Positions 41,778-62,196 of a stretch of 64,000 bases of DNA are shown piece after piece. Source of the DNA: Maricaulis salignorans (lineage in GTDB: Bacteria; Pseudomonadota; Alphaproteobacteria; Caulobacterales; Aquidulcibacteraceae); contig CALRXH020000005.1 in assembly GCA_943372135.1 (NCBI GenBank), positions 51,978 through 115,977 of the forward strand, given 5' to 3'. The first letter of the stretch is position 1; each line of letters starts with the position of its first letter. The notes under the pieces were generated by a model. That model searched no databases and was not told where the DNA came from. It saw only the letters and a list, made by a program, of their open reading frames with translations. Made by a program: the position numbers and the translations under genes.

Positions 41778-41805
41778 CGGAAGTCTCCGTTTCCGGTATA
41801 TTGAT

Positions 41806-42911: not shown

Positions 42912-42960
42912 GGGAGGATCGCTTCAAACAAAGGCCAAAGAGGATGGAACTAAGGGTGCG

Positions 42961-43779: not shown

Positions 43780-43781
43780 GG

Positions 43782-44723: not shown

Positions 44724-45853
44724 TCCGCGGCCTCCTTCATGTGCGCTGTTTGCTCTGCCAAGGCTTTTGCTTTGGCATCAAAGAACTCCCGACGCAGACG
44801 ACGCAGGAATTGAAGGTCAGCTTGGAAGTCAACGTAATGCGGCAGTTTGAGGTGCTGAACAAAGCCTGACGCTTCCACCACGTCGGAGTGATAGAGCACA
44901 AATTCCTCATCCTGACAGGGCGCTTGGCCTTCTTCGCCCAACTCGCGGCCGCGAAGTGCGCGGTCCACAATCGACATGCTCATCGCTTTGCGTTCATTGT
45001 GGCCAAAGGTCAGACCATAGCCACGCGTGTATTGTGGTGCCTGCTCAGCAGAGCCTGCAAAGCCCGACAACATGATGCATTCTGTCATCGGCAAGTCTGC
45101 CAACTCAATTTCAAAGCCAAGTTCATCAGGTGTAAAACCGACACTGACTTCGCCCATGCGGATCTCGCCGCACAAGGGGTGGGTGGAGCCCCAACCGCGT
45201 TGGCTAGAATAAGCAAGGCTCAATAAGAAGCCTTCATCGCCGCGTGCAAGAGCTTGCAAACGTTGGTCGCGATCGGCTGGGAAGGCCATCGGCTCGCGGG
45301 TCAAGTCATAGGGTTGTGCTGAAGTATCTGTAACCGGGTCGCCTTCCAACAAGCCTTCATGGGCAAAGACTTGGGCAATGGTCGCCAATTGCGTCGGCAT
45401 AACTTCTTCAGATACTTGAGCCGGCGGGACTTCATGGCCGCCTTCGGCTGCCAGCTTGAAGTCCAACAGACGGTGGGTGTAATCAAACGTTGGCCCTAAG
45501 ACCTGCCCACCTGGAATGTCCTTGAAGGCAGCAGAAACGCGGCGCTGGACGGCCATGTTCGCAGTTTCAATCGGTGTCGAAGCGCCAAAGCGCGGTAAAG
45601 TAGTCCGGTAGGCACGCAACAGAAAGATGGCTTCTGGGAGATCGCCGCGCGATTGCTTGATCGCCAGAGCGGCCAAATCTGGATCGTAGCAAGAGCCTTC
45701 AGCCATTACACGATCAACGGCCAAGCTCATTTGTTCGCGAATTTGAGCCACGCTCAACTCTGGAACGGAGGGATCGCCACGGCGGACTTCGCCCAGCCAA
45801 GTGTGGGCGTTGGTGATTGCGCGTTCGCCGCCCTTAACTGCTACATAAGCCAT
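44720..45853 (-). CDS. phnI: C-P lyase subunit PhnI
   Basis: MAYVAVKGGE, AIKQSRGD..EAIFLLRAYRTTLPR, GGQVLGPTFDYTHRLL, SGFVQHLKLPHYVDFQ. Confidence 0.97.
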   Translation of the reverse strand: MAYVAVKGGERAITNAHTWLGEVRRGDPSVPELSVAQIREQMSLAVDRVMAEGSCYDPDLAALAIKQSRGDLPEAIFLLRAYRTTLPRFGASTPIETANMAVQRRVSAAFKDIPGGQVLGPTFDYTHRLLDFKLAAEGGHEVPPAQVSEEVMPTQLATIAQVFAHEGLLEGDPVTDTSAQPYDLTREPMAFPADRDQRLQALARGDEGFLLSLAYSSQRGWGSTHPLCGEIRMGEVSVGFTPDELGFEIELADLPMTECIMLSGFAGSAEQAPQYTRGYGLTFGHNERKAMSMSIVDRALRGRELGEEGQAPCQDEEFVLYHSDVVEASGFVQHLKLPHYVDFQADLQFLRRLRREFFDAKAKALAEQTAHMKEAAE

Positions 45854-45855
45854 GC

Positions 45856-46473
45856 TTATTCCCCTTTAGTCTGAATGCGGGTGGTACGCGGGATGGATAC
45901 AAGCGTGGCTTCAGCGCACAGCATCACATCAATCCCGAATTGAAAATGGGCTACAAGGTCGGCACGTTCTGACCAAAAGCTATCTGGTAGGCCTTGCGGC
46001 GCAATTTCGGCGATCGTTTCAATCCCTGGCCCTTCGAGCACCAAATTCAGACCCGCCTCAAGATCTGGCACCATCACAATCACGGTGGTCGCTAGGTCTG
46101 GATATTTGGCATCACCTTGGTTGAAACCTGACAACATCTGAGCCGCGAGCCCTGCATGCGACAGAACGGCAAACGCGGCCTCCTCAGCATGATCGGTCAG
46201 CGGACAGGATGTATGGAACCGAAGCCAACTCTCGATCGCGCCGCCGCGCAAGCTTCGCTCTAGCCAAACCAACGTGTCTTGGTCGGCCAAGGTTAGAAGA
46301 ACAGCTGCCGCCGCCGCATTGAGCCCCATCGGCGGAGTCAAAGCTTTGCCAACTTCTACCCGAGTGCCGGGCTGCGCCGTGGCGGTCAAAAGCGCGCGAA
46401 ACACACTTTGGCTGTCTCCGACAGGCTCGGAAAAGCCGGGGCGCAGTTCTGCAAGATTAAGGGGGGCATTCAT
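45856..46473 (-). CDS. phnH: C-P lyase subunit PhnH
   Basis: PGFSEPV.DSQSVFRALL, LLTLAD.DT, G...YPD.ATT, L.GPGI, F.FGID. Confidence 0.93.
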   Translation of the reverse strand: MNAPLNLAELRPGFSEPVGDSQSVFRALLTATAQPGTRVEVGKALTPPMGLNAAAAAVLLTLADQDTLVWLERSLRGGAIESWLRFHTSCPLTDHAEEAAFAVLSHAGLAAQMLSGFNQGDAKYPDLATTVIVMVPDLEAGLNLVLEGPGIETIAEIAPQGLPDSFWSERADLVAHFQFGIDVMLCAEATLVSIPRTTRIQTKGE

Positions 46474-46475
46474 GA

Positions 46476-46961
46476 CTAGGCCTTCCGATCTCGGACCATG
46501 GTGAAAAACTCGACCTGCGTGGCCTTTGCCTTGCGGCTGATAGCTTCGCGACGCTCATCGGCGGCTTGTCGCAAAGGCTCAATCAGACCGTCGCGCACTT
46601 GGTCATGCCAAACCGGGGACTGCAGCATCGCATCAGCAACAGCTGCGACAAAAGCATGCGCCTTATCTCGACCGGAGACATAACCAATGCCTGTCTCCCC
46701 TGTGGCCAAACGGATCGCGCATCGCGTCACCGTCATCTCGCCAAGGTTAAACGGATTACCTGCGCCACCCGTGCGGCCGCGCACCATCACCATGCCGGTT
46801 TCAGCAGGGCGCAGGACCTGGCTTTCTGGCGCAACCACATCCTCCCAGAGCCTTAGAACTTCTGATGCGGGGGCCTTTGCTAGGGTCGACAACCAGCCCT
46901 GGCGGGCGGTACTGCCCGTCAGGGCATTGTCAACAAATTCGTCTGCGTACGATTGAGTCAT
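46476..46961 (-). CDS. phnG: C-P lyase subunit PhnG
   Basis: RQGWLSTLA, LRPAETGMVMVRGR.GG.G.PFNLGEMTVTRC, FFTMVR; start ATG 46961. Confidence 0.93.
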   Translation of the reverse strand: MTQSYADEFVDNALTGSTARQGWLSTLAKAPASEVLRLWEDVVAPESQVLRPAETGMVMVRGRTGGAGNPFNLGEMTVTRCAIRLATGETGIGYVSGRDKAHAFVAAVADAMLQSPVWHDQVRDGLIEPLRQAADERREAISRKAKATQVEFFTMVRDRKA

Positions 46962-47015
46962 GGCGAACAACTTTTGAATTGATTGTAATTGGACTTGCAT
47001 TATGCTATCAGTTCA

Positions 47016-47068
47016 TTAGTATAAATTCAACAGATTAATTGTGTCATTGCTGTGACTTAATATAAATT
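47016..47068. promoter_or_regulatory. AT-rich phnG/phnF divergent control region with repeated operator-like motif
   Basis: TTAGTATAAATT (47016-47027) and TTAATATAAATT (47057-47068). Confidence 0.5.
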
Positions 47069-47097
47069 TGTTGATTATCATGTAAAAAGGCAATAAA

Positions 47098-47850
47098 ATG
47101 TCAATTATTATTGATGAAAAAAGCCAATCGACAACAAATTGGCGAGCAATCGTCCAGTGGCTCGAAGTAGAAATTTCTGAGCGTCGATTGGTACCGGGCG
47201 ACAAATTGCCAACTGAGCTACAAATCTGTGAGCGATTTTCGACAAATCGTCATACGACTCGCCGCGCGCTGGCGCACCTGCAGTCGAAGGGGCTTGTCGA
47301 ATCGACCCAAGGGCGCGGCAGTTTTGTTCGGCGACCAACCTTGATCTACAGTATCGGCAAACGAACCCGGTTTTCTGCAGGCCTGCAAGAGCAAGCCGCT
47401 AACCCTGAAACCAAGACATTGACGTTAGATACCCGCCCTGCAGAGCCACATGTGGCGGCAGCACTTGGGTTGAAAGGTGGGTCCCCGACAATCTTTTTGG
47501 AGCGCCTCGGATTTGCCAACGGCCAAGTCATCTCGGTTGCTAGACATTGGTTTGCGTTTGAACGTTTCCCTACGTTTGCTGTCTTCTATGCGCGATCAAA
47601 GTCGATCACCCAAACCCTGATTGATTGTGGCGTGCCGGATTATACGCGGCTGCGCACGAAGATCAGTTCGCGCTTACCGACCGCGCAGGAAACCCAGCTC
47701 TTACACGTGCCCAGACATATTCCTTTATTGGTGACACATGCTTGGAACGTCGATGGCCTTGGCCGACCGCTAGAATATGGCGAAGCCCGAATGGCCTCTG
47801 ATCGTGTGGAAATAACCATCGAAAACGAACGACTGCCAGACCTAGACTAA
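47098..47850 (+). CDS. phnF: GntR/HutC-family phosphonate regulator (wHTH + UTRA)
   Basis: GDKLPTE......FSTNRHT.RRAL..L...GLV...QGRGSFV, RTRFS, DYTR..T.I.SR; divergent from phnG. Confidence 0.92.
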   Translation: MSIIIDEKSQSTTNWRAIVQWLEVEISERRLVPGDKLPTELQICERFSTNRHTTRRALAHLQSKGLVESTQGRGSFVRRPTLIYSIGKRTRFSAGLQEQAANPETKTLTLDTRPAEPHVAAALGLKGGSPTIFLERLGFANGQVISVARHWFAFERFPTFAVFYARSKSITQTLIDCGVPDYTRLRTKISSRLPTAQETQLLHVPRHIPLLVTHAWNVDGLGRPLEYGEARMASDRVEITIENERLPDLD

Positions 47851-47895
47851 TCTCGCGCCAATTTCCTCTCAACCTCCAACAGTAATGAGCCGAAC

Positions 47896-49029
47896 GTGAC
47901 CATCCAACTTTCTAAAGCCAAAATCGTAACGCCCACTGGGGTGATCCAAGGAAGCCTTTCTTTCAAAGGCGCAGAAATCCAAGACATTGTCGAAGGTCCA
48001 AGCCAACATGGTGAGGATTGTGATGGGGATTGGTTGATCCCTGGCATTATTGATATTCACACCGACAATTTGGAGCGTCACTTCTTCCCGCGCGCCAATA
48101 TCGATTGGAACCCCGTTTCTGCCGCTGTGGTCCATGATGGCCTGTGCATCAGCGTGGGTGTGACCACCGTCTTCGACTCACTCTCAATTGGCTCCTTTGG
48201 CGCAGGCTCGGCGCGTACGCCCGACAATTTGATCCGGCTGACCGATGCCTTGCACGAAGCGCATGACAAACAACTTTTGAAAGCAACCCACCGCCTACAT
48301 TGGCGATGCGAGGCCCCTTCAGACGTGATGGCGGATTGGCTACCTGACTTTGCCGATGCGCCATTGACCGGCTTGTTCTCGCTGATGGATCACACGCCGG
48401 GCCAACGCCAATATCGCAACATCGATAAGTTCCTCGATATGTGGCGGCGGGAAGGACTAACCGAAGCAGCAATTGAAGACCGATTAGCAGAGCGCCGCGC
48501 CAATGTTGCCCGCCATGATGCGGCTAATCGGCGTCTCGTGGTCGAAGTTGCTAAAGCTCGTGGTGTGCCCATCGCCAGCCACGACGACGAGTCCGTCGCC
48601 CATATCAACGAAGCAGCAGATCTTGGCGCCACCATTGCTGAGTTCCCAGTGACGATGGAAGCGGCACAAGCGGCCCAGGACCGCGGAATGCATATCGTCA
48701 TGGGCGGGCCTAACCTCATCCGGGGCGGCTCTTACTCTGGCAATGTGCCGGCCAAGGATTTGATCGCCGCAGGTCTGCCGATTGGGTTTGCTTCTGACTA
48801 TGTGCCCCGCAGCTTGATTGAGTGCGCCTTTGCCCTTGCCGCTGGCCCGTGGCAATGGCCGATCGAACAAGCGGTAAACACGGTAACGGGCCTGCCTGCT
48901 CGGGCTGTTGGCCTCCATGATCGTGGCACACTGGAAGTGGGCAAACTTGCCGATGTTGTTCGCGTAAAAGTTGTCGATGGCCACGCCCTTGTGCGCGGCG
49001 TCTGGACGGGGGGCGTCCGCGTCGGCTGA
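47896..49029 (+). CDS. phnM: alpha-D-ribose 1-methylphosphonate 5-triphosphate diphosphatase (copy 2)
   Basis: PGIIDIHTDNLE, GVTTVFDSL, HWRCE, MDHTPGQRQY, ASHDD, AEFP, GGPNLIRGGSYSGNV, ASDYVP. Confidence 0.92.
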   Translation: MTIQLSKAKIVTPTGVIQGSLSFKGAEIQDIVEGPSQHGEDCDGDWLIPGIIDIHTDNLERHFFPRANIDWNPVSAAVVHDGLCISVGVTTVFDSLSIGSFGAGSARTPDNLIRLTDALHEAHDKQLLKATHRLHWRCEAPSDVMADWLPDFADAPLTGLFSLMDHTPGQRQYRNIDKFLDMWRREGLTEAAIEDRLAERRANVARHDAANRRLVVEVAKARGVPIASHDDESVAHINEAADLGATIAEFPVTMEAAQAAQDRGMHIVMGGPNLIRGGSYSGNVPAKDLIAAGLPIGFASDYVPRSLIECAFALAAGPWQWPIEQAVNTVTGLPARAVGLHDRGTLEVGKLADVVRVKVVDGHALVRGVWTGGVRVG

Positions 49030-49766
49030 TGCATGTTCTCACCCTCAATATCTGGAAAGACGAGGGCGACTTAGCAGCCCGCCTAGAGATGATCGCAGAA
49101 GAATGCCGCCTCCTGCAGCCAGACATGATTTGTCTGCAGGAGGTCTATGCGGACTCGATGATGGATGCAGGGAAATGGCTGGCCAACGCATTGGGCTTGA
49201 CCCGGGTCGGCGTCCCAGCGCGCACAAAGCAAAGATCAGGGGTTCTTTCGAGCTCTGGCCTCGCTATTTTATCGCGACTGCCGCTCTTGGCGGAAGAAAG
49301 TCTAGACCTGCCAACAAGTGCCGCCGATGGCGGCCGAAAGGCACTCTATGGTGATTTTGAAACTTCCAAGGGTCCGCTCCGCGTTGTCTCTCTCCACTTA
49401 TCTCATCTAAAGGCAGAAGAAGGTGACATGCTGCGCAGCCAGCAATTGGCGGCGATTTGGTCTTGGGCGAACCAAGGCCGGGATCACCCCCTTATTCTGG
49501 CTGGCGACTTCAACGCCACGCGCAAAGCCGCATGCTTTGACTGGTTGGCTCATCAAAGCACGATCACTGGCACCGACAGCCTTTTGCCGCAGGCGACCAG
49601 TTTGCGCCATCAGCCCAATGCTCTGATCGATCACATCGCGTTGGCAGGGAAAGGTGCCTGGCAGTTAAGCGACGCAGAGCTTAGCTTTACAGGAGTTGAT
49701 GCCAAAAGCGGATGCTTTGCCAGCGACCACTTCGGTATTCTGGCCAGCTTTGATCCAATTGATTGA
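49029..49766 (+). CDS. Endonuclease/exonuclease/phosphatase (EEP) family protein
   Basis: VLTLNIW, PDMICLQEV, GLAILSRLP, SLHLS, LAGDFNA, IDHI, ASDHFG; TGATG-coupled to phnM2. Confidence 0.9.
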   Translation: MHVLTLNIWKDEGDLAARLEMIAEECRLLQPDMICLQEVYADSMMDAGKWLANALGLTRVGVPARTKQRSGVLSSSGLAILSRLPLLAEESLDLPTSAADGGRKALYGDFETSKGPLRVVSLHLSHLKAEEGDMLRSQQLAAIWSWANQGRDHPLILAGDFNATRKAACFDWLAHQSTITGTDSLLPQATSLRHQPNALIDHIALAGKGAWQLSDAELSFTGVDAKSGCFASDHFGILASFDPID

Positions 49767-49823
49767 AGCGGACCACGATTTACTGTCACAAATCCTCTGA
49801 TTACGGCACCATTTTGTTTGGCC

Positions 49824-49841
49824 ATGTCACGGGCCTGTCGT
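49824..49841 (+). promoter_or_regulatory. Candidate Pho box upstream of the ABC exporter
   Basis: ATGTCAC-GGGC-CTGTCGT (11-bp direct repeat); another half-site CTGTCAC at 49783-49789. Confidence 0.55.
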
Positions 49842-49863
49842 GCAAGCGCCATAAGCCAATTCC

Positions 49864-51675
49864 ATGTCCCAACAAGATAATCAGGCGCGCCACTCATGGC
49901 GCGAGACCATTGGATTTTGCGCCCGCTATTGGGCGCAAGAAAGACCACTTTTGTCCGTCGTCGTCGGGCTGACGCTCGTGATGGTCGCAGCCGAAGTCTG
50001 CATCCCGCTATCAGCAGGCCATTTGGTTGATACGCTGACGAAGGTTGCAGCGGGTGGCCTGCGCGACCAAAGCGCCGGGCAAGCAGCGGTGATGGCGGTC
50101 GGCCTTATGACTGGGATTTCTGCCGTCTATTATGTGCTAGGCAATATCTCGACCCGTGTTTACCACCGGGCTGCCGCGCGCTGTATGGCTAAAGTCATTG
50201 AAGACGGTTTCGCGCGGATTCAGCATTTTTCCTCAGATTGGCATGCGAATACGTTTGCCGGCGCAACGGTCCATAAACTGACGCGCGGCCGTTGGTCGTA
50301 TGAGCATATCTCCGATATCTTGTGGCAGCAATTCTTCCCACTCGGCTTGGTCATTCTAGGCCTTGCTGGCGTGATGCTGGTTCGCTTTCCCGCAGTGGGG
50401 ATCGTGTTTTTGGTGATGGTTGTTGTCTATGTGGTCGCTTCTTTTGTGATCGCCATCCGTTATGTGCGTCCAGCCAACGTCGTGGCAGCGGCCGCTGACT
50501 CTCGCATTGGTGCGGCGGTGGCTGATGCCGTCTCCAATAATAATGCGGTCAAAGCGTTTGGGGCGGAGGCGCGCGAGACCGAGCGTTTTGAACAAGTGAC
50601 AGGCAAATGGCGGTCCTTAGCGGTCGTTTCCTGGCGCAAAGCTTTGGATATGGGCCTGATCCAGCATTTTCTGTGGTTGAGCTTACAAGCTGCCATGCTG
50701 GTTCTGTTGATCGGACTTTCAACGCGTGGACAGGCTACGCCGGGTGACGTTGCCTTTGTCATCACCGCTAACTTCCAACTCGGCGGCAGTTTGCGCAAAG
50801 TCGGCGATCACATCCGCATGCTTCAGCGGGCGAGCGCAGAGCTGGCCGATATCATCGAATTTGATCGCGCGCCGCTGGGCGTCGAAGATGTCGAGCAAGC
50901 GCCAGACTTTCAGCCGGGTCTGGGCGAGATCATCTTCGACCAAGTCCAGTTTTCCTACCCGGGCTCACAGAGCGGCAAAGCATCCCTGTATCAAAATCTC
51001 GATCTTCGCATCGCGCCGGGCGAGAAAATTGCGCTGGTTGGCCCCTCGGGGTCTGGCAAGTCTACCTTCGTCAAACTCATCCAGCGCCTATATGACCTCA
51101 AGTCCGGCACTATTTGGATCGACGGACAAGACATTGCGCAAGTCCAGCAGGCAAGCTTGCGCCGTGCCATCTCAATTGTGCCCCAAGAACCAATCTTGTT
51201 CCACCGCAGTCTGGCCGACAACATCGCTTATGCGCACCCTGAAGCGCCGATGGAGGCCATCATCCAAGCGGCAAAGCGTGCTTACGCCCATGATTTCATT
51301 GACGCCTTGCCGGAAGGCTATCAGACATTAGTAGGCGAGCGCGGCGTGAAGCTTTCTGGCGGAGAACGTCAGCGCGTCGCCATTGCCCGTGCCTTTTTAG
51401 CGGACGCCAATGTCGTCATATTCGATGAAGCAACCTCCAGCCTAGACACGGTCACAGAGCGGTTGATTCAAGCGGCCATGGCAGACCTGATGGTCGATCG
51501 GACCACAATCATCGTGGCGCACCGCCTGTCGACCATTAAGGATGTGGATCGAATTTTGGTGTTCGAACGCGGCAGGATTATCGAGCAAGGGCACCACCAA
51601 GCCCTTTTGGCGATCCCAGAAGGTGCCTATGCCCGCCTTCATGCCGTCCACGCGGAAGACCAATTTATTGGATAA
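49864..51675 (+). CDS. ABC exporter, fused permease/ATPase (MsbA/Atm1-like)
   Basis: Six-TM N-domain, GPSGSGKST, VPQEPILF, LSGGERQRVAIARA, FDEATSSLD, AHRLSTI. Confidence 0.93.
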   Translation: MSQQDNQARHSWRETIGFCARYWAQERPLLSVVVGLTLVMVAAEVCIPLSAGHLVDTLTKVAAGGLRDQSAGQAAVMAVGLMTGISAVYYVLGNISTRVYHRAAARCMAKVIEDGFARIQHFSSDWHANTFAGATVHKLTRGRWSYEHISDILWQQFFPLGLVILGLAGVMLVRFPAVGIVFLVMVVVYVVASFVIAIRYVRPANVVAAAADSRIGAAVADAVSNNNAVKAFGAEARETERFEQVTGKWRSLAVVSWRKALDMGLIQHFLWLSLQAAMLVLLIGLSTRGQATPGDVAFVITANFQLGGSLRKVGDHIRMLQRASAELADIIEFDRAPLGVEDVEQAPDFQPGLGEIIFDQVQFSYPGSQSGKASLYQNLDLRIAPGEKIALVGPSGSGKSTFVKLIQRLYDLKSGTIWIDGQDIAQVQQASLRRAISIVPQEPILFHRSLADNIAYAHPEAPMEAIIQAAKRAYAHDFIDALPEGYQTLVGERGVKLSGGERQRVAIARAFLADANVVIFDEATSSLDTVTERLIQAAMADLMVDRTTIIVAHRLSTIKDVDRILVFERGRIIEQGHHQALLAIPEGAYARLHAVHAEDQFIG

Positions 51676-51683: not shown

Positions 51684-52511
51684 CTAGTTCAGAATTCGGG
51701 CCAGTGTGCGTAACCTTTGACCGGCGCTTGGCCCTGTCAAACCATGAAAGCCTGACAAGGATGGATAGCTTACAATACCGTCTGGTCCAGAAAACTCAGG
51801 CCCACGCCCAATGCTAAGTGCGAAGCGGCGGCCGGGTTTTGGATTGAGCTTTGGCGTGATTTCGCGAACGCCATATTGGACATGATGCGAGATGTCCCAA
51901 TGATGAGACACCCCTTCGCACTTCAAATTAAGCCAACAATGCCCGGTGGACCACTGCTCACGTGGTTCGGCGATGTGCACGCCAATGATGTAGGCGGCCG
52001 GCACGCCAATCGCGCGCAAAGCCGCGACAGCTAACGTATGCATATCCACACAGGTGCCGGGAGTAAGGCCGCATTCCAAAGCGGGCATGGCGTCTTCACC
52101 CGTCCCCAAATGCGTCTCGCGTGCACCATAGGTAAAGTGGTCCCCTACATATTGGATGAGGGCGGGTACACGGATTTGTAAGGGTGCCTCCGCCACTTCT
52201 TCCGCGATTTGATCCATCAAAGCCTGCGACGGTCTTTCAAAGGCGCTTAGACCGGGCATGAATGCCTCGTCGCTTAGCCCGGGGCCGGGCTCGTCAAAAG
52301 CTATTTTGACCATGGGTTGATCGCCAGCTTTCAGAGCGAACTGATAAGCTGCAATTCGGCCTTGTGTGTCTTGCACAATGGATTGCGGTTCTGCGCCTTC
52401 AAACGTGACGCCCATAATCTTTTGCTCCCATGTGTCGGGGGCAACTGGGAAGAGGTAGAGACCTGCATCTTCAACGGGAGCTTCCAGAAACGCTTCAAAC
52501 ACACCCATCAT
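51684..52511 (-). CDS. Transglutaminase-like cysteine protein
   Basis: GTCVDMHTLAVAALRAIGVPA.Y..G, GHCW, WD (Cys-His-Asp triad); ATGA-coupled to phnN. Confidence 0.82.
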   Translation of the reverse strand: MMGVFEAFLEAPVEDAGLYLFPVAPDTWEQKIMGVTFEGAEPQSIVQDTQGRIAAYQFALKAGDQPMVKIAFDEPGPGLSDEAFMPGLSAFERPSQALMDQIAEEVAEAPLQIRVPALIQYVGDHFTYGARETHLGTGEDAMPALECGLTPGTCVDMHTLAVAALRAIGVPAAYIIGVHIAEPREQWSTGHCWLNLKCEGVSHHWDISHHVQYGVREITPKLNPKPGRRFALSIGRGPEFSGPDGIVSYPSLSGFHGLTGPSAGQRLRTLARILN

Positions 52512-53053
52512 GATGTCTCCAGGATTTCAACCAACTTTGAAACACCAGCTTCCAAGCTCGCATCATTGTTCAAGAAAAAAACGTCCGGGCCCGTCACTTC
52601 ATAGGCTGCGGCACGCGCGATGCGGTCAGCAATCTCAGAGGGTGTTTCACGGCCACGGGCCATCAAACGCTGTTCGATGACCTTACTGGGGGCTGCAATC
52701 GAAACAACGACCAAGGACGAAAACTGCTGACGCGCCTCATCCAGAATCGCGCGTGAGGCATTGACCACCACCTGCTGGCCTCGCTCTAGGCGAGCCGCAA
52801 TGTCAGCTGGAACGCCATAAGAAAGACCATGGGCGTTCCAGAAAAGCGCAAATTCACCTCTTTGACGCTTCAATTCAAATTCAGACGACTCAATGGCAAT
52901 GTGATCTTCCCCACCAGCATCCTGTGGCCGCGTGATGAAACGTTGGGGGAAGTGATAAATAGGGTCGCTTGAAAGCTCGGCCTTAGCCCCTTCAAGTAGC
53001 GAATCCTTGCCAACACCAGATGGCCCGACGATCAAGAACAAGGTTCCCGTCAT
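52508..53053 (-). CDS. phnN: Ribose 1,5-bisphosphate phosphokinase
   Basis: VGPSGVGKDSLL, RFITRP...GGEDH, WNAHGLSYG, VVNASR, RLMARGRET..EI..R..RA. Confidence 0.95.
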   Translation of the reverse strand: MTGTLFLIVGPSGVGKDSLLEGAKAELSSDPIYHFPQRFITRPQDAGGEDHIAIESSEFELKRQRGEFALFWNAHGLSYGVPADIAARLERGQQVVVNASRAILDEARQQFSSLVVVSIAAPSKVIEQRLMARGRETPSEIADRIARAAAYEVTGPDVFFLNNDASLEAGVSKLVEILETS

Positions 53054-53068
53054 GGTCTGTAACGCCGA

Positions 53069-53758
53069 TTAGGAATGTTTCTCAACAAAGGCATCGGCAT
53101 CCATATCCCTAAAATCTTGTAGCGCTTCAGCCAGCTTTTCGTGCTCCCAATCCCACCAAGCTAGGGCAAGAAGGCCGTCTTGAACCGCTTTAGGAAACCG
53201 CTCGCGGATGGGCTTTGACGGTACCCCGCCAACAATCGTAAAGGGGGCCACGTCTTTTGACACAACTGCCCCGGCGCCGACAACTGCACCCGTTCCAACG
53301 CTAACACCTGCAAGAATGGTTGCCCCGTGCCCGATCCAGACATCATGTCCGATCGTTACATCGTCTGCGCGCCGCCACTCAAAGAAGTCATCATCGTCCT
53401 GGTCGCCCAATTGATAAGAGACCGAGCGATAGGTGAAGTGATGGAGGGCCGCCTTCCACGTCGGGTGGTTGCCGGGATTAAGGCGTGTGTCGCGCGCGAT
53501 GGAGCAGAATTTGCCGATTGTGGTATAAGCCGTGCTCGAGTCCGTCACGATGTAACTATAAGCACCCATCTCTGTTTCCATCAAAGATGTGCGGGCCCCG
53601 ACGCGAGTCCAAGGACCTAAGATACAGTCGCGGACATGGGCTTCAGGCGAGATACCCGGTTCAGATTCTGCCGGCTTTTCAGCGGCTGGATCAGGCTTCC
53701 AATGTTCAAAATAGCGATAATCTGGCGGCAAAATCCGCCCAGCGAGCCTGCCCGTCAC
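53069..53758 (-). CDS. Hexapeptide-repeat acyltransferase of phosphonate operons
   Basis: IGKFCSIA...RLNPGNHP.W.A..HHFTYR, IGHDVWIGHGATILAGV.VGTGAVVGAGAVVSKDV.PFTIVGGVP. Confidence 0.9.
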   Translation of the reverse strand: MTGRLAGRILPPDYRYFEHWKPDPAAEKPAESEPGISPEAHVRDCILGPWTRVGARTSLMETEMGAYSYIVTDSSTAYTTIGKFCSIARDTRLNPGNHPTWKAALHHFTYRSVSYQLGDQDDDDFFEWRRADDVTIGHDVWIGHGATILAGVSVGTGAVVGAGAVVSKDVAPFTIVGGVPSKPIRERFPKAVQDGLLALAWWDWEHEKLAEALQDFRDMDADAFVEKHS

Positions 53759-54546
53759 GCAACAGCCTCCAAGAGCTCTTCTGCCTCGTTTCGTGCACCT
53801 GATCCCTCGATGACGTGGCGGCCGTAAATCGCGTCGACCACAGAGGCGTTGAGGTCATCAGGCGTGCCATCAAACACAATCTGCCCATCTGCCATGCCGA
53901 TAATCCGTGGACAGAACCGGCGTGCAATATCCAGCGCATGCAGATTAACCAGAACCGTGATATTGCGCTCACGATTAATGGTGGATAGCGTCTCCATCAC
54001 CGTCTGGGCATTGGCTGGGTCGAGGGAGGCAATAGGCTCGTCCGCCAAAATGATTTCAGGCAATTGCATCAAGGTCCGCGCGATCGCGACACGCTGTTGC
54101 TGCCCGCCGGACAAGGTATTGCACCGCTGCAAAGCCGTATGAGACATGCCCAAGGCGTGCAATTCCAGAATGGCGCGTGCGCGTTCTTCTGCTGGGAAGA
54201 GCTTGAGCATCGGGGCCACACCACGTTGGCGGGCGAGGCTGCCAATCAAAACATTGGTCAGGACATCGAGACGCGGCGACAAATTGAACTGCTGAAACAC
54301 CATGCCACAGGTCGCACGCCACTGACTAAGCGCTTTACCGCGCAACTCCGTCACCGGCTTGCCATGCCATGTGATTGCGCCTTCATTCGTGTCGCACAGG
54401 CGATTAATCAATCGCAGGAGCGTAGACTTACCAGCCCCGGAACGGCCAATAATGCCAACCATCGAGCCAGCAGGGATTTGTAAGGATACATCCTGCACCG
54501 CATGGGTTGAACCAAAGTGCTTTGTCACCGACTTAAGTTCCAGCAC
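53755..54546 (-). CDS. phnC: Phosphonate ABC transporter ATP-binding protein
   Basis: GRSGAGKSTLLR.INRL, FQQFNLSPRLDVLTNVL.G, LSGGQQQRVAIAR, ADEPIASLDP; AGGAGG RBS, GTG start. Confidence 0.95.
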   Translation of the reverse strand: MLELKSVTKHFGSTHAVQDVSLQIPAGSMVGIIGRSGAGKSTLLRLINRLCDTNEGAITWHGKPVTELRGKALSQWRATCGMVFQQFNLSPRLDVLTNVLIGSLARQRGVAPMLKLFPAEERARAILELHALGMSHTALQRCNTLSGGQQQRVAIARTLMQLPEIILADEPIASLDPANAQTVMETLSTINRERNITVLVNLHALDIARRFCPRIIGMADGQIVFDGTPDDLNASVVDAIYGRHVIEGSGARNEAEELLEAVA

Positions 54547-54585: not shown

Positions 54586-54603
54586 GTGAAACCTATGTGA
54601 CGG
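54586..54603 (-). promoter_or_regulatory. Candidate Pho box upstream of phnC
   Basis: Minus strand CCGTCAC-ATAG-GTTTCAC, 11-bp direct repeat. Confidence 0.6.
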
Positions 54604-54658: not shown

Positions 54659-55522
54659 TCAGCCGTGCACTAATTTTGATCGGATATTCTCCGAGACGTA
54701 GTCGAGAGCCATAACGCAGAGCACATAGGCAATGACGATCCAAGCGACTTGGTCAAAGGCAAAGATGCGGATGCGCTCTTCCAGTTCAAACCCGATGCCC
54801 CCTGCCCCGACGATACCCAAGATGGCAGCGTTGCGGAAATTGGACTCCAGCATATAGAGCGACTGGCTGGCCATCACCGGCAAAACCTCTGGCAACAGGC
54901 CAAAGCGAATAGCCGCACGGCGCTGGCCACCTGTCGCACGAATGCCTTCTTGCGGGCGCGGGTCACTATTCTCGATTGCCTCGGCATATAGTTTAGCGAT
55001 GCGCGGGATATCGGTAAGCGCTAGCGCGATGACACCACCAAAAGGTCCAAGCCCAAAGGCGACGATCAGAATAAGCGCCCACACAAGGGCGGGAATGGCA
55101 CGAAAGACGTCAAAGCTGCGCCGGATGAGAAAGTGCAGCGCCTCGTTCGAAACAAAGGTTTTAGCGCCGAGCAACCCCAAGGGTATGGCACCCATAACAC
55201 CCAAGAAGGTCCCAGCGACCGCCATTGCAAAGGTCGCGGCCAAGGCTTGCAGGATCCGAACTTCCTCGCCAGCGGCGTTAGGCGGAAACATGCCACCCAT
55301 GAAATCAGCCAGTTTCGAGAGGCCTTTGGCAAAGGCGGCAGGCGTCATATCTACCCCGATACACAGGGCGACGAACACAGCGCTCAATCCAATCCACAGG
55401 GCAAGGCGACGCGCGTGGACAGCGAATGGCGTGTCCACCAGATGCGGTGCGATTGCGCGCGCAACCTGCATCTGATGGGCGGTGACTTGGGGAGGCGTGG
55501 CAAGGGCTGCGCTGGTTGTCAT
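54659..55522 (-). CDS. phnE: Phosphonate ABC transporter permease
   Basis: RAIPALVWALI....FGLGPFGGV.A, AKLYAEAIE, YMLESNFR.A.ILGIVGAGGIG. Confidence 0.93.
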   Translation of the reverse strand: MTTSAALATPPQVTAHQMQVARAIAPHLVDTPFAVHARRLALWIGLSAVFVALCIGVDMTPAAFAKGLSKLADFMGGMFPPNAAGEEVRILQALAATFAMAVAGTFLGVMGAIPLGLLGAKTFVSNEALHFLIRRSFDVFRAIPALVWALILIVAFGLGPFGGVIALALTDIPRIAKLYAEAIENSDPRPQEGIRATGGQRRAAIRFGLLPEVLPVMASQSLYMLESNFRNAAILGIVGAGGIGFELEERIRIFAFDQVAWIVIAYVLCVMALDYVSENIRSKLVHG

Positions 55523-56433
55523 GCCGTCGCCTCCAAGCCGATCAAACGGTGGCGGATTGCCTCAGACACAAGATCAATCAGGATGATCAGACCGATGATC
55601 AAGATCAAAAGGGCAAAATAGGTATCAAACTCGGTGTAGGTAATCGCGCGCGACAATTCGATCCCGATGCCGCCAGCCCCGACCACGCCTAAGGCAGCAG
55701 CACCGCCGACATTGATTTCCAAGCGCAGCAGCCCGTAGGACGCATAATGGGGCAAGACTTGCGGCAGGACGCCAAAGCGCACCTGCGCCCACCAAGAGCC
55801 ACCAACTGCCTTTACCGCCTCAACCGGTCGCATATCTGCGGCTTCATTGGCTTCCGAATAGAGTTTCCCGAGACTTGCCATGGTCCCCAAGGCAATAGCA
55901 ATCACACCGGGCAATGGGCCTACGCCGAAGGCTGCAACCAATATCAGCGCCACAATCAAATCCGGCAGGGTACGGATGACTTCTAGCGTGCGGCGGGTCA
56001 GCCAATAAATATAGGGCGATGGCGAGAGGTTCTTCGAAGCCAAGAGTGAGGCCCAAAAACCACCGAAAACACCAAACAGGGTCGCAACAATGGCGATCTG
56101 AACCGTCTCCCACAATAGGGCCAGCCACGTTGGCATATCATAGAACCAAGAGGACAGTGAGCCAGCAGTCCCACGATCCTCAAACAGCGCCTCGGGCTTA
56201 AGGTCTGGGATCATGATATTGAGGAGATTGGCAATCCGCCCCCAAGGGTCGCTGCCTTGGCTGCCAGAGAAGAACCCGCTGACATGGAAGCACACGACAA
56301 TCAGCGCACTGAAGCCAATCAAAACGACGACTTGCTGGGTGCGCTGGCGCAGCAGGGTCACCCGCCGCTGCGCTTCAAATTCCCGAATGACTTGCGCCTT
56401 AATCGCTTCTTGCTGCGGCACGTTAGCGAGCAC
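55519..56433 (-). CDS. phnE: Phosphonate ABC transporter permease
   Basis: ETVQIAIVAT, RTLPDLI.ALI, GKLYSEANE, LEINV..AAALGVVGAGGIG. Confidence 0.93.
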   Translation of the reverse strand: MLANVPQQEAIKAQVIREFEAQRRVTLLRQRTQQVVVLIGFSALIVVCFHVSGFFSGSQGSDPWGRIANLLNIMIPDLKPEALFEDRGTAGSLSSWFYDMPTWLALLWETVQIAIVATLFGVFGGFWASLLASKNLSPSPYIYWLTRRTLEVIRTLPDLIVALILVAAFGVGPLPGVIAIALGTMASLGKLYSEANEAADMRPVEAVKAVGGSWWAQVRFGVLPQVLPHYASYGLLRLEINVGGAAALGVVGAGGIGIELSRAITYTEFDTYFALLILIIGLIILIDLVSEAIRHRLIGLEATA

Positions 56434-57271
56434 CCCTTTGCATGGCAGCGGCCTCTGTCGGATCTAAGGCTATCCCACCGCCAAGTTTTGCGGCCAAAAA
56501 GGTCATCGCTTCCGGGCGCTCTTGATGTAGCGCGATATGGATGCCTACCAATTGATAGCGATCCGCTTCCGGCAGGTCATTTCTGACGACAAGGCCCGCT
56601 AACGCCGTCGGTCGTCCGCGCCACGCCTCAACCACATCGCCACACAAAACGACTTTGGGATCATCGCCACGGCAGAGCCTTTGGCGTGCGCCTGCCGTGA
56701 GAATCAATGCATCGCCCTGTCCGGCACGCAATGCCGCAAGACCTGCTTGCTCGTCCGCGACAAACAGTTCTGGCTTAAAGCTCTTGGTATCCGCGCCAAA
56801 ATCGGCCAAGCCTTGCAAGGGCACCTGATGGCTGGCCGCTAGTTTAGAAATGAAGATCGGTCGACTGCCAGCAAGCTTAACTGGCGTATCTCGGCCAGAA
56901 GTTTTGAGCGTCAAGGCCACCGCCAGAACACGACCGGTTATGGCGTCAGCCCGAGGTGCCAGAATTGGGCGAGCTACTTTGTTGACCGGTTCAAAAGAGG
57001 GTTGATCCAAAACAGCCAAGTCCAACTGACTTTCTTGCAAGGCAGTAGCCACTGCTTTGCCGTCTTCATAGCCACAGAGCACCACAGGCTTACCCAGTCG
57101 CCCTTCAAGATGCTTGCGGTAAGCCGCTGCTGCCGCGTCACTTGGCGTGGCGGTGCAACCTGATTCAGTAAGGCCCGCGATGCCCACTCGAAAGCCTGCC
57201 GGGGGTGTTTGTGCTGTGGCGGGCTGCATCAAGGCCAGCAGAATAAGGATGAAACCAAGCACGCGGATCAT
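56423..57271 (-). CDS. Divergent PhnD-like periplasmic binding protein
   Basis: Signal peptide; PhnD-like layout (HLEGRLGKPV, LDLAVL, LAVALTLKTSG, LAALRAGQGDA, LVVRNDLP) without STSG or GGH; between phnD and phnE. Confidence 0.65.
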   Translation of the reverse strand: MIRVLGFILILLALMQPATAQTPPAGFRVGIAGLTESGCTATPSDAAAAAYRKHLEGRLGKPVVLCGYEDGKAVATALQESQLDLAVLDQPSFEPVNKVARPILAPRADAITGRVLAVALTLKTSGRDTPVKLAGSRPIFISKLAASHQVPLQGLADFGADTKSFKPELFVADEQAGLAALRAGQGDALILTAGARQRLCRGDDPKVVLCGDVVEAWRGRPTALAGLVVRNDLPEADRYQLVGIHIALHQERPEAMTFLAAKLGGGIALDPTEAAAMQRGAR

Positions 57272-58269
57272 GGCTTAGCACTCCCATTGCTTGGCTTCTG
57301 GGCCGGGGCAGCACGGCGTTCGGCGATTTCCGTGCGACGCATTTCGACCACGGCCTGATAGTCAGCAGGTGTCATGGGTTGCATATCAGATCCCTCTAGA
57401 AGCCCGATATCGACCCATAGTTGCGGATCCTCGTAAGCCAGCGCGGCCATCGCCCCACGGGTGATGTCTTGAAAGGCTTGCGGACGGTCTGTGCGGATCA
57501 CATAGGGCGAGTTGGGCATTGGCCCTGCTGTCCAGACGATCCGATAATCAGAGACCTTCACCGCGCCTTTTCGCGCCAAAGTGTAGAGAGAGCCCGAAGT
57601 AAATCCGGTTTCTGGCGTGCCGCCACTGGCGATCAAAAAGATTGCGTCAAATTGACCGTTCGCCAAAGCCAAAACCGACTGCGTATGGCCACCGCTCATG
57701 GCGGTTTTGCCAAAGAACGTGTCAGGATTTTTCCCTTGCTGGCGCATCGCCCAGCGCGGGAACAAATAGCCAGAGGTCGAATTGAAATCGACATAGCCCA
57801 AGGACTTGCCGCGCAAGTCCTCAATCGTGCGATAAGGACTGTCTGCCTTGACAATTAGCGCTGAGTAATATCCCGAAGAGCCCTCTGCCGTGCGCAAAGC
57901 CAGAAACGGTGTTACCTTCTCACCCATCTGCTCACGCGCATTGGCATAGGCAGCGCCACCCATTTGCGCGAGCTCTAGCTGGCCAGACGCCATGGCTTGA
58001 ATAACGCCATTGTAGTCTGCAGCTTGGAAGACTTCGACCTTTAGCCCAGTGATGCGGTTGAGGTATTTTTGGTAAGTCGTCCATCGCGCCAAAGTGGTGG
58101 AACTATCTTCGCCCGACGTTGCACCGATGCGCAATTGGCCGACTTCTTTCTGCCAGCCTGTGAGCTCGGTATCTGGCTTATCAGAGCCACAAGCAGAGAG
58201 CCCTGAAAGGAAAAGCACGACGCAAAGCGACTTGAGCCAGGTTGATATCTGCACCTGCTTTACCCCCAC
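57268..58269 (-). CDS. phnD: Phosphonate ABC transporter substrate-binding lipoprotein
   Basis: Lipobox LSAC, AADYNGVIQAM, YYSALIVKADSP, DFNSTSGYLFP, GGHTQSVLALANGQFDA. Confidence 0.93.
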   Translation of the reverse strand: MGVKQVQISTWLKSLCVVLFLSGLSACGSDKPDTELTGWQKEVGQLRIGATSGEDSSTTLARWTTYQKYLNRITGLKVEVFQAADYNGVIQAMASGQLELAQMGGAAYANAREQMGEKVTPFLALRTAEGSSGYYSALIVKADSPYRTIEDLRGKSLGYVDFNSTSGYLFPRWAMRQQGKNPDTFFGKTAMSGGHTQSVLALANGQFDAIFLIASGGTPETGFTSGSLYTLARKGAVKVSDYRIVWTAGPMPNSPYVIRTDRPQAFQDITRGAMAALAYEDPQLWVDIGLLEGSDMQPMTPADYQAVVEMRRTEIAERRAAPAQKPSNGSAKP

Positions 58270-58298
58270 TATCTTTAAAGCCTTACTGCCTGAAAATC

Positions 58299-58316
58299 AT
58301 GTCAGTCGCGCGACGG
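58299..58316 (-). promoter_or_regulatory. Candidate Pho box upstream of phnD
   Basis: Minus strand CCGTCGC-GCGA-CTGACAT, 11-bp spacing. Confidence 0.45.
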
Positions 58317-58387
58317 AAAGAAACGATCCCCGCCCAACCTACAGCCGATTTGTGGGACATTGGCGGCCCCTGTTTCGTGCGATCATC

Positions 58388-58425
58388 AAAAAGAAAGGGC
58401 CTGCCGGTTCAAACCAGCAGGCCCC
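58388..58425 (-). terminator. Intrinsic terminator after TonB receptor 1
   Basis: Minus strand GGGCCTGCTGG-TTTGAA-CCGGCAGGCCC followed by TTTCTTTTT. Confidence 0.85.
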
Positions 58426-58470
58426 CAACTTTTAGATCAGATCGTCAAGCGCCCCAGAAGGGCGGCTAGA

Positions 58471-61281
58471 TTAGAAGTTGATCCGTACACCCATGATATA
58501 ACGTGGGCCGAATGTTTCGCCTTCGATCGGGAAGGCGCGGGTGTCGCCGTAGCGAATGGCCTGCTCATTGGTCAGATTGACCGCGTCGAAGAAGTATTCG
58601 ACGTTCTTGCTGACTTCATAGCGGATCGACAAGTCCATCTCGCCATCGTCATCCCAGAACACATCGCCATTGGTCACTGGCACAAGTTTGCTGTTGATGA
58701 CGTTGTAGGTGCCGACACCTTGCAACCAAGTCGTACGGAACTGGTAGGTCAAGCGAGCCGAGAGGCCATATTTCTCGTAGATCAAGGACAGATTGTAGAG
58801 ATAATCTGAGGTGCCCGGCAGGCTAACTTTGCGCGCTGGGACGACAGCGGCATTCGTGCCCGCTGGGATTTCGACTTCAGATTCCGTGAAGGTTGCATTG
58901 GCGCCAAAGCCAAAACCACCCAAGAAATCAGGCAAGCCTGCTTCTTCAACCCACTTTTCAGCATTTTGCGACACAGCGATTTCGAAGCCGCTGAGATAGC
59001 CGTTGCCGCCGTTGCGAATGGTGGTCAATGCGTAGTTCGACCGCAAATTCGTCCCAACGTCGAGATCCGTACGGCCGAATACATCGGTTTGCGTGAACAA
59101 CACATCTTTGATGTCCTTGTAGAAGGCACCAACCATGAAATAGCCGCCGCTCTTTTGATACCATTCGAAGTAAGCATCAAAGCCAGTTGAGCGCTCTGGG
59201 CCTGCATCTGGGTTACCGCCAGAGATCGTTTGGGTCACATCGTTAACAACAAAGTTTGGACGAATATCGTCAAACTCTGGCCGTGATGCACCGGTTGTAA
59301 GGCCGAAACGAAGCTTCATTTCATCGTTCAGGTCAAAGTTAACGTGAGCGCTTGGGTAGAAGAGCGTGTCTTCGGCTTCCGTTTTGACCAAGCTGAACGC
59401 GTCGGTCGTGACAGATGGCGTCAAGTCAACAAGGGCTTGACCTTCATTCTTGGTGCGCTCAGCGCGCAAGCCAACAATGACATTGCCCCAGTCTTGCTTC
59501 CAAGTGGCCATAGCATAGCCGGCCACAATGTTCTCGCTGACTTCATAAAGGTTCAAGCTTTGATCGACAAACGAACCGATATTCTTCGCCTTCAAATCTG
59601 CCGCCAAGGAGTCGACCCGTGTCTTGCCCTGATAACGGAACTGATAACCCAGTTGCAATTGGCCCAAATAAGGACGGTCAATTGCAATGTCGTTGAAGGT
59701 GATCGGTGCACGGCCTGCGGCCGCCACTTGTGCGGCTGTGGTCGTGAAGACTGTGGAGAATGATTCCTTGGTACGGTCGGTGAAAGCACCGCCGACTTTC
59801 AAGGTTGTTTCTCCACCAAACACTGTGAAGTCACGGCTCGCATCAAAGCGACCCGTCACAGCTGTGGTTTCGTCTTGAGCTTCGCGCGAGCTGATGTTGA
59901 GGAAGGTGACTGGGAAAGCCTCAATTGAGTTAACGCGCTCACCACGCGAACGAACGGCTGTTGCACCAGTACCAGTCACCACAGTCCGATACAGTTGAAC
60001 GATGTTGAAGTCATCGTCACCGAAGAAATACTCAACGGTTGGGCGATCCGTGATCGTCGAGGGGCTGGCGAAGTTTGGCGTTCCTGGCGCATTCAAGCCG
60101 TCGACTGATTCAGTGAAGTTCAAGCGGGCAGACGCGTCCCAACCTGCAAATTCGAAGTCTGCACCAAGTGTGTTGGTGAAGATCGATTGCTCATAATCGA
60201 GGGAGTTGAAGTTCGACTGGATTTGCGCACCATAAACAACGCCACGGTCGGGTGTGTTGCCGTTACAAATGTCAAACGCGCCAGAGGTTGTTTGTGGGGC
60301 GCGCACGGCTGGGCAGGCGGATGTGCCGGTTGCGGTAGCACCATTGTCCAAGCGGAAAATGAAGTTGCTGCGCAATTCAACGTCGGTGAAGTTGGTGAAG
60401 ATCGAGCTGAAGAACACTTTGGTGGTGTCGTTTACGCGATAATCTACGCGGCCCGAATAGGACTTGTTGCCACGGGTCAAGCGATAAGGCTTGTTCTCAT
60501 ACTCACGTGCCCAACGACGGTCTTCATAGCCTGCACGACGGTCAACGCTGCCACCGCCGGTTTGATAGGGGTCGGTTTCCCAATTGTCGGTGACTTGGTC
60601 ACGGCTATAGAACGAGCCTTGCAGCAAAACGCCGAGCTTGCCATCCATAAAGCGGTTCGCAACAACGAAAGAGGTGTCGATTTCAGCACCACCGCCCAAA
60701 GTCATGATGCCGGCGGATGCTTTGATATTGGCTTTGAAGCCAGGATAGTCGAATGCAGAACGTGTGCGGACGTTGACGTTACCAGCGACTGTGTCTCCGC
60801 TCATGTCGGCAGTGATCGCCTTGGTTACGATAACTTGGGCCGCCAAAACCGATGGAATATTGTCAAAGCGCGAAGAGCGACCTTCGGGTGATACAACGTT
60901 GACGCCGTCAAACGACAGCGTTGCCCAGTTGTTTGGCAGGCCGCGCAAGTTGACATAACGCGCTTGACCTTGGTCGCGCTCAATCGCGACGCCAGGCAGG
61001 CGGCCAATTGCGAAAGCAATGTTTTGGTCTGGCAGCTGGCCAATCGAGTCAGCCGAAACCACGGCGACCAAGGATGGCGAGTTGCGCTGAATTTGAAGCG
61101 CTGCGCGTTCAGAGTCCGCAATCGGACGAACACCACGAACAACGATGGTTTCAGCCGCCGTTTCTTCTGCTGGTGCAGGCGCGGTGGTTGCCGCATTTTG
61201 AGCAGTCGCTGCGGTTGCCGCAAGCAGTGCAAACGAGCCAACTGCGCCCATGAGGGCAGCGCGTGTAAACTTAGTGGTCAT
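58471..61281 (-). CDS. TonB-dependent receptor (copy 1)
   Basis: Signal peptide, TonB-box-like ETIVVRG, plug LPDQNIA.AI.RLPGVAIERDQGQARYVNLRG, C-terminal RYIMGVRINF. Confidence 0.95.
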   Translation of the reverse strand: MTTKFTRAALMGAVGSFALLAATAATAQNAATTAPAPAEETAAETIVVRGVRPIADSERAALQIQRNSPSLVAVVSADSIGQLPDQNIAFAIGRLPGVAIERDQGQARYVNLRGLPNNWATLSFDGVNVVSPEGRSSRFDNIPSVLAAQVIVTKAITADMSGDTVAGNVNVRTRSAFDYPGFKANIKASAGIMTLGGGAEIDTSFVVANRFMDGKLGVLLQGSFYSRDQVTDNWETDPYQTGGGSVDRRAGYEDRRWAREYENKPYRLTRGNKSYSGRVDYRVNDTTKVFFSSIFTNFTDVELRSNFIFRLDNGATATGTSACPAVRAPQTTSGAFDICNGNTPDRGVVYGAQIQSNFNSLDYEQSIFTNTLGADFEFAGWDASARLNFTESVDGLNAPGTPNFASPSTITDRPTVEYFFGDDDFNIVQLYRTVVTGTGATAVRSRGERVNSIEAFPVTFLNISSREAQDETTAVTGRFDASRDFTVFGGETTLKVGGAFTDRTKESFSTVFTTTAAQVAAAGRAPITFNDIAIDRPYLGQLQLGYQFRYQGKTRVDSLAADLKAKNIGSFVDQSLNLYEVSENIVAGYAMATWKQDWGNVIVGLRAERTKNEGQALVDLTPSVTTDAFSLVKTEAEDTLFYPSAHVNFDLNDEMKLRFGLTTGASRPEFDDIRPNFVVNDVTQTISGGNPDAGPERSTGFDAYFEWYQKSGGYFMVGAFYKDIKDVLFTQTDVFGRTDLDVGTNLRSNYALTTIRNGGNGYLSGFEIAVSQNAEKWVEEAGLPDFLGGFGFGANATFTESEVEIPAGTNAAVVPARKVSLPGTSDYLYNLSLIYEKYGLSARLTYQFRTTWLQGVGTYNVINSKLVPVTNGDVFWDDDGEMDLSIRYEVSKNVEYFFDAVNLTNEQAIRYGDTRAFPIEGETFGPRYIMGVRINF

Positions 61282-61340
61282 TGGAATCCCCTTTCGCAGG
61301 TGCAACACACCTGTTCCGTGGGCGGCGATACTGTTTGGAG

Positions 61341-61380
61341 GTAACAGATCGAAGTCTATTAGGATTCAGTTTTGTGAAAT
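61341..61380 (-). promoter_or_regulatory. Candidate extended Pho box upstream of TonB receptor 1
   Basis: Minus strand ATTTCAC-N4-CTGAATC-N4-TAGACTT-N4-CTGTTAC: four units in 11-bp phase, three resembling half-sites. Confidence 0.45.
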
Positions 61381-61556
61381 AATGCTCACACTTCTGCGAA
61401 TTCCGAGGCCGCTTTCCGGCGCTCTGCTTTTGGCGCGACGATTTCAATTACTTCCAGATTTGTTTAGCGCATCGGGTGGCTTGCTTGATTTGTCTGAGAC
61501 AAAAGCCGCATAAGCTAATTGCCCAAATGCCAGCTCAAAAAGAGTCGGCACCTTCC

Positions 61557-61999: not shown

Positions 62000-62000
62000 T

Positions 62001-62131: not shown

Positions 62132-62196
62132 GCCAAGCTTCGTTCAAAGCACTGCCTGGCCCGCTCTATGTCGGTCACATAGAGCGGGCCTGCACT

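Follow-up and report, generated by a model that had tools for sequence, protein, structure and literature searches.

A complete C-P lyase island is present in the window analysed here, a stretch of 64,000 nucleotides whose host is an Aquidulcibacter-like freshwater alphaproteobacterium, and the gene behind phnN in this island encodes a transglutaminase-like (TGL) protein. This raises the question what such a protein does among genes for phosphonate utilization. Most accessory genes in C-P lyase clusters lack an explanation, and the same is true of the way in which phosphate-starved cells with broad phosphonate importers cope with arsenic mimics. The initial annotation knew of no described role for the TGL fold in phosphonate catabolism, and a literature search that covered few subscription journals likewise found no publication connecting the fold with C-P lyase, Pho boxes or ars operons. 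The annotation proposed that the hexapeptide-repeat enzyme encoded between phnC and phnN N-acylates aminoalkylphosphonates, as PhnO does, and that once the C-P bond is cleaved the TGL protein takes the acyl group off or passes it on. Our analysis indicates that a role in handling arsenic mimics of phosphonates is more likely for the TGL protein than one in deacetylation.

Organization of the C-P lyase island

PhnJ of the island was identified with an E-value of 3e-142, and the closest loci show 91-96% identity to the window island. The features of the locus are as follows.

39937-49766, both strands: remaining C-P lyase island, with DUF1045, phnM and phnL-K-J-I-H-G (minus) and phnF, a second phnM and an EEP hydrolase gene (plus)
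49864-51675, plus strand: MsbA/Atm1-like ABC exporter, convergent with the TGL gene across an 8-nt gap
51684-52511 (probable start 52508), minus strand: three-cysteine TGL protein, assigned from PF01841, conservation, fold and gene contexts
Within the TGL gene: codons for C147 (52071-52073), C154 (52050-52052), H191 (51939-51941), C192 (51936-51938) and D206 (51894-51896)
52508-53053, minus strand: phnN, ribose 1,5-bisphosphokinase (TIGR02322, 210.4 bits, cut-off 156)
53069-53758, minus strand: hexapeptide-repeat acetyltransferase, TIGR03308, with a CatB/Vat-like fold (287.5 bits, cut-off 201.65)
53755-54546, minus strand: phnC, ATPase of the phosphonate ABC importer (open reading frame; follows the phnD/phnE genes)
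54586-54603, minus strand: Pho-box-like direct repeat of two 7-mers with an 11-bp period, 57 nt upstream of phnC
54659-63993, minus strand: uptake arm with two TonB-dependent receptors, two phnD-like genes and two phnE genes

Analysis of the open reading frames placed phnC, the hexapeptide gene, phnN and the TGL gene in one coupled unit on the minus strand. The junctions described earlier were all found in the reading frames: a GTGA overlap between phnC and the hexapeptide gene, a 15-nt gap between the latter and phnN, and an ATGA overlap between phnN and the TGL gene. The TGL reading frame opens with ATG-ATG. Because homologues of 274 amino acids align from the second Met and a ribosome-binding motif (GGAGA) lies 7 nt ahead of the second ATG, the true start is probably 52508, which would give a 1-nt TGATG overlap with phnN. 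With either start codon, phnN and the TGL gene are predicted to be translationally coupled. A scan for sigma-70 promoters and terminators gave signals at chance level only.

The hexapeptide gene appears to be an ordinary TIGR03308 copy, a catalogued phn accessory. Of 301 Caulobacterales genomes, 17 have TIGR03308, and PhnJ is present in exactly these 17. The nearest solved relatives of the enzyme are the CatB/Vat O-acetyltransferases, followed by the N-acetyltransferase ApmA, and it has a His-bearing motif that aligns with CatB. PhnO is a GNAT protein; a GNAT gene is absent inside the island, and 21 GNAT matches were found elsewhere in the genome.

Several other genes of the locus deserve mention. 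The arm at 47098-51675 (plus strand), consisting of phnF, the second phnM, the EEP hydrolase gene and the ABC exporter, recurs in almost every related island. The exporter gene carries a Pho-box-like site of its own (12.2 bits), adjoins the TGL gene in both island arrangements and is duplicated in some Caulobacteraceae islands. A cysteine-free, bleomycin-binding-like VOC gene (41878-42210, minus strand) lies between phnL and phnM; it is also found in L002 and L003 and is absent from L004-L006. ArsI was considered as an identity for this VOC gene and was ruled out by its bleomycin-binding-like character and its zero cysteines. In the uptake arm, the TonB-dependent receptor genes stand in tandem ahead of the two phnD-like and two phnE genes (receptor genes at 58471-63993, minus strand), and the second phnD (56423-57271, minus strand) is strongly diverged, with a TIGR03431 score of only 15.5 bits.

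Distribution of the TGL gene and its tie to phosphate starvation

Close relatives of the TGL gene were found in 26 genome loci. Eleven of these have the gene after phnN, and the other 15 are without any phn gene within 10 kb. In an island tree built from phnF, phnM and phnH, the TGL-bearing islands form one clade (support 0.98). In G059 the gene is lost, and a 22-codon stub resembling the TGL N-terminus directly after phnN (L056:11120-11185) marks its deletion; in L079 the gene follows the ABC exporter and is part of the opposite operon. In other islands, SbtA/SbtB or DUF6886 genes fill the slot behind phnN, or it is empty. Because of the single island clade, the loss in G059, the move in L079 and the varying contents of this slot, the adjacency of the TGL gene and phnN is traced to one inherited event. 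Since 10 of the 17 TIGR03308-bearing Caulobacterales genomes are without a close TGL gene, the acyltransferase works without the TGL protein, which is not specifically tied to either phnN or the hexapeptide enzyme.

In a separate lineage (L095), a quick TGL tree being used for the assignment, the gene adjoins a genuine phnM. Detached copies have unrelated genes as neighbours, and those of Acetobacteraceae face two PuuE/deacetylase-like genes. In L016-L021, a strong Pho-box-like site on the opposite strand precedes these two PuuE/polysaccharide-deacetylase-like genes upstream of the TGL gene, and a TRAP transporter converges on the TGL gene both there and in Pannonibacter. In the islands L060 (12893-14181) and L065, the genes behind phnN encode an SbtA bicarbonate-transporter-like protein and a PII-like SbtB protein, and a PfkB-family kinase gene together with an EamA transporter gene recurs between phnE and phnC in L058, L060, L062 and L067. 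L007 is labelled an acidobacterium; its TGL sequence nests among Hyphomonadaceae-type sequences and is accompanied by an island-type PhnJ, so that the label may be wrong.

Among the genomes with a close-family TGL gene, phn genes were present in 26 of 26, and the searches turned up no copy of the close family in a genome that lacks them. A genome-wide search found PhnJ elsewhere in all 15 genomes with detached copies, a count that includes kin, which are not independent, and two partial hits at contig ends. As background, PhnJ occurs in 6% of Caulobacterales genomes, in 14% across the class and in 55% of Acetobacteraceae. Because of the kinship, the two partial hits and the Acetobacteraceae background, the co-occurrence of the TGL gene with PhnJ is suggestive, not conclusive. 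A class-wide sample of 400 genomes yielded only two further TGL members, too few for statistics. A dependence on C-P lyase would hold only for the close clade, since G467, which contains a bsnMN-type cluster, has a TGL member and neither a PhnJ nor a PhnI match.

Promoter signals are stronger evidence than PhnJ co-occurrence for the tie of the TGL gene to phosphorus starvation. Half of the lineages with detached copies (7 of 14) have a Pho-box-like site of 10.8-18.1 bits ahead of the TGL gene, compared to 2.4% of 166 control upstream regions at a threshold of at least 10 bits; the binomial value for this enrichment treats lineages as independent and is for that reason overstated. The matrix was trained only on upstream regions of phnC and phnD, and the Acetobacteraceae boxes on the opposite strand, which may serve the divergent genes, were counted as negative. 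When the matrix is trained on islands that are less than 85% identical to the window, the site at 54586-54603 scores 17.8 bits, and a Pho-box-like site before phnC is conserved in related islands. A Pho box is an 18-bp direct repeat with an 11-bp period located upstream of a transcription unit (PMC4415409), a description that the window site fits. This site is a probable PhoB-dependent promoter element of the phnC-hexapeptide-phnN-TGL unit, and phosphate starvation appears to induce the TGL gene, PhoB control being suggested by the Pho-box-like sites. Taken alone, the 15 detached copies would speak against a phn link; the genome-wide PhnJ search and the boxes point the other way. The finding which the initial annotation had named as refuting its proposal, a TGL gene lacking association with phn loci elsewhere, was thus not encountered in the close family.

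The three-cysteine TGL family and its arsenic contexts

The TGL protein passes the PF01841 (Transglut_core) profile with 47.9 bits (cut-off 23). All of 37 close homologues have C154, H191 and D206 (numbering starts at the first Met). The model predicted for the protein (pLDDT 95.4) has 3ISR as its best structural match (Z 14.2, rmsd 4.1, 231 aligned residues, 15% identity) and also matches the folds of TgpA and PeiW. By profile, triad and fold it is assigned to PF01841, and an amide-cleaving or acyl-transfer activity is putative. Querying the sequences of solved structures with the TGL protein alone gave no significant match, no NCBIfam model covers it, and a plasmid collection contained no match to it or to two distant members. 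The gene is under purifying selection, as its dN/dS in comparison with five relatives is 0.07-0.13, similar to that of phnN. The N-terminus is acidic, lacks a basic n-region, and the sole hydrophobic peak is the catalytic helix; this hydropathy proxy, used in place of a signal-peptide predictor, agrees with the earlier statement that no signal peptide is present and with a cytoplasmic protein.

The earlier account of the TGL motifs is borne out for the Cys-His-Asp residues; it missed the conservation of two additional cysteines as well as the arsenic-related gene neighbourhoods of more distant family members. A profile search delineated a family of about 120 clusters (121 at E up to 1e-10), with proteins of 270-300 amino acids and approximately 30% identity. 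C147 is present in 60, C154 in 69 and C192 in 67 of 70 members, and a WDxxHH motif is also conserved. The window protein has all three cysteines and WDISHH. Of the 37 close homologues, 3 lack C147, as does P0058, a member from a phn island, and neither TgpA, which has HAW, nor 3ISR has a Cys at this position. C192 alone is not diagnostic because animal transglutaminases also have a Cys after the catalytic His. The alignment further contains invariant Arg and His residues.

Nine distant members have a readable gene context; five are arsenic-linked, three are found in phosphorus-scavenging settings and one is uninformative.

L107: arsR(CC)-TGL-arsP; arsenic context
L099: arsR-arsP-TGL facing the arsenite oxidase genes aioBA; arsenic context
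L038: arsI/cadI-TGL; arsenic context
L103: operon of aroA-like, N-methyltransferase, iPGM-like and TGL genes; arsonopyruvate-type context
L109: TGL-AroA fusion beside ArsM-like, ArsO-like and iPGM-like genes; organoarsenic context
L105, L075 and L104: phosphorus-starvation settings, with a 15-bit box in L105

Homology of the window protein to the arsenic-linked members extends over the whole length: it shows 32% identity over 249 amino acids to P0084 (E 3e-35), and hhalign aligned it with the TGL domain of P0100 with a probability of 99.9 over 243 columns. By sequence, it is placed in the three-cysteine family of ars operons and organoarsenic clusters. Its own gene sits in a phn island, not in an arsenic cluster, and no member of the close clade lies in an ars operon among the loci read. 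The host genome has Acr3 and ArsC matches, with the acr3-arsC locus on another contig, and gave no match for ArsP, ArsI or ArsH.

Three of these loci have further features. The operon in L103 (6458-10822), from an alphaproteobacterium without C-P lyase, encodes the aroA-like protein, a glycine/sarcosine N-methyltransferase, the iPGM-like protein and the TGL protein and faces pstSCAB; it is a candidate pathway that could yield a methylated organoarsenical, for instance arsenobetaine. The NRPS-like cluster in L109 (1-15070) also has lanthipeptide-dehydratase-like and MFS genes and is a candidate for an undescribed organoarsenic natural-product cluster. In L105 (3848-13519), the Pho-boxed operon consists of a sugar-type ABC importer, the TGL gene, a phosphodiesterase gene and a peptide-type ABC importer.

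Possible functions of the TGL protein and comparison with known systems

Thiols can reduce arsonates, whereas a reduction of phosphonates by thiols is not plausible, and arsenic in its trivalent state is bound by two or three cysteines. Because of the three cysteines, the organoarsenical efflux and synthesis genes next to family members, and the broad phosphonate importer in the same, probably PhoB-controlled unit, we favour a TGL protein that acts as a thiol enzyme and reduces or traps organoarsonates imported by PhnCDE, with a probability of roughly 45%. During phosphate starvation, PhoB would turn on phnC-hexapeptide-phnN-TGL and the rest of the island, as the Pho-box-like sites suggest. 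PhnCDE, with its broad specificity, would also admit arsenic analogues such as methylarsonate and arsonoacetate through mimicry of phosphorus by arsenic. Cys154, together with Cys192 and Cys147, may then act as thiol reductase or trap and convert R-As(V) to thiol-bound R-As(III). Arsenic would in this way be kept away from C-P lyase by a protein recruited from a family used in organoarsenic metabolism, and the adjacent ABC exporter is a candidate exit route. The role would be that of a protective accessory, neither a C-P cleavage step nor a partner of the hexapeptide enzyme. Several observations speak against this arsenic-directed function. The close clade may have changed function, because it shares only about 30% identity with the arsenic-linked members and its genes lie outside ars operons in the loci read. 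Trivalent methylarsenic is more toxic than the pentavalent form, so that reduction would need another exit in a genome without ArsP, ArsI or ArsH matches. In addition, the full hydrolase triad is invariant, and C147 is missing in a few close members.

The invariant triad would instead fit an amidase or acyltransferase that makes additional phosphonates usable and has no need of the hexapeptide enzyme. Such an enzyme could, for instance, liberate aminophosphonates from phosphonopeptides or from N-acyl phosphonates ahead of C-P lyase, or acetylate them in the manner of arylamine N-acetyltransferases. The fold is common to pseudomurein endoisopeptidases, the amide synthase GdmF and arylamine N-acetyltransferases (Z 7-8), the invariant Arg and His residues could bind a phosphonate, and both the presence of phn genes in every close-family genome and the deacetylase-like genes facing the Acetobacteraceae copies are in line with such an activity. 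We nevertheless regard it as rather unlikely: Z-scores of 7-8 fall in the background range, the high PhnJ frequency in Acetobacteraceae weakens the co-occurrence, and the extra cysteines and the five arsenic contexts are left unexplained. Those contexts, and the AroA fusion in particular, are equally unaccounted for if the TGL protein is a general phosphate-starvation protein, such as a peptidase or isopeptidase without a phosphonate or arsonate substrate, that entered the island once through shared PhoB control. The best fold match to an uncharacterised putative cysteine protease, the unrelated neighbours of detached copies and the single event behind island residence agree with this explanation; we consider it improbable, as no close-family copy was found outside phn-bearing genomes although PhoB is far more widespread.

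The cycle of protection and deprotection put forward in the initial annotation is very improbable. In its favour, the hexapeptide and TGL genes form one coupled transcription unit both here and at 11 genome loci, the island contains no GNAT gene, ApmA demonstrates that a hexapeptide fold can N-acetylate, and an Agrobacterium gene between phnL and phnC is labelled phnO, a label that does not imply TIGR03308 membership. Their adjacency, as described above, goes back to one event followed by a loss and a move, most TIGR03308-bearing genomes manage without a close TGL gene, and the GNAT proteins encoded elsewhere in the genome could supply acetylation. The closest solved relatives of the hexapeptide enzyme being O-acetyltransferases likewise argues against an aminoalkylphosphonate N-acylase, though ApmA has the same fold. 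The hexapeptide-repeat transferase is an already known, uncharacterised phn accessory, and two marine C-P lyase fosmids carrying one failed to support growth of a phnH-P deletion strain on the PhnO-dependent substrates aminomethylphosphonate and 1-aminoethylphosphonate, a result obtained in a heterologous host with genes that do not necessarily belong to TIGR03308 (PMC3840354). Deprotection after C-P cleavage would serve no known need, as the phosphorus is by then already on ribose and the leaving product is N-methylacetamide (PMC10574752).

Reduction or trapping of organoarsonates thus remains our preferred function for the TGL protein. A slightly more tentative generalization is that freshwater alphaproteobacterial C-P lyase islands possess a dedicated, PhoB-controlled organoarsonate reductase or trap which was drawn from organoarsenic metabolism and protects phosphonate scavenging. 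If true, phosphonate catabolism would have an accessory function that is new, and a protease fold would play an unusual redox role, the transglutaminase fold serving as thiol oxidoreductase and linking phosphonate use in lakes to arsenic speciation. If false, the TGL family would still be a Pho-linked enzyme family with amidase activity as the alternative. In either case, one small family spans phn/Pho settings and organoarsenic clusters.

Compared with known systems, the TGL protein shares the Cys-His-Asp core and the whole-length fold with the soluble two-domain PF01841 type represented by 3ISR, a putative cysteine protease of Cytophaga hutchinsonii, and adds the conserved Cys147 and Cys192, the WDxxHH motif and the phosphorus and arsenic gene contexts. 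The hexapeptide enzyme is a member of the TIGR03308 phosphonate metabolism hexapeptide-repeat transferases, with nothing unusual in the window copy. Like PhnO of E. coli (PMC3463581), it is an acetyl-CoA transferase within a phn cluster, but it has a CatB/Vat-like left-handed beta-helix instead of the GNAT fold, and equivalence of the two is putative. In Streptomyces lividans, AroA and iPGM homologues constitute the bsnMN module, by which arsonopyruvate is made during bisenarsan biosynthesis, and the papers describing it make no mention of a TGL protein (PMC12159101, PMC4943196). TGL relatives in L103 and L109 adjoin or are fused to genes of this type, whereas the window lacks such a module and the genome has a housekeeping aroA only. 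Distant TGL members are co-transcribed with arsR/arsP or arsI (L107, L099, L038); the window gene, in contrast, lies under a Pho box in a phn island, in a genome with neither an ArsP nor an ArsI match. BamD, a TGL protein of a related streptomycete methylarsenate pathway, reportedly reduces arsonoacetate using three cysteines. If this is correct, the case for an organoarsonate reductase or trap gains and the novelty of its chemistry drops, while the novelty of its location in a phosphonate island stays.
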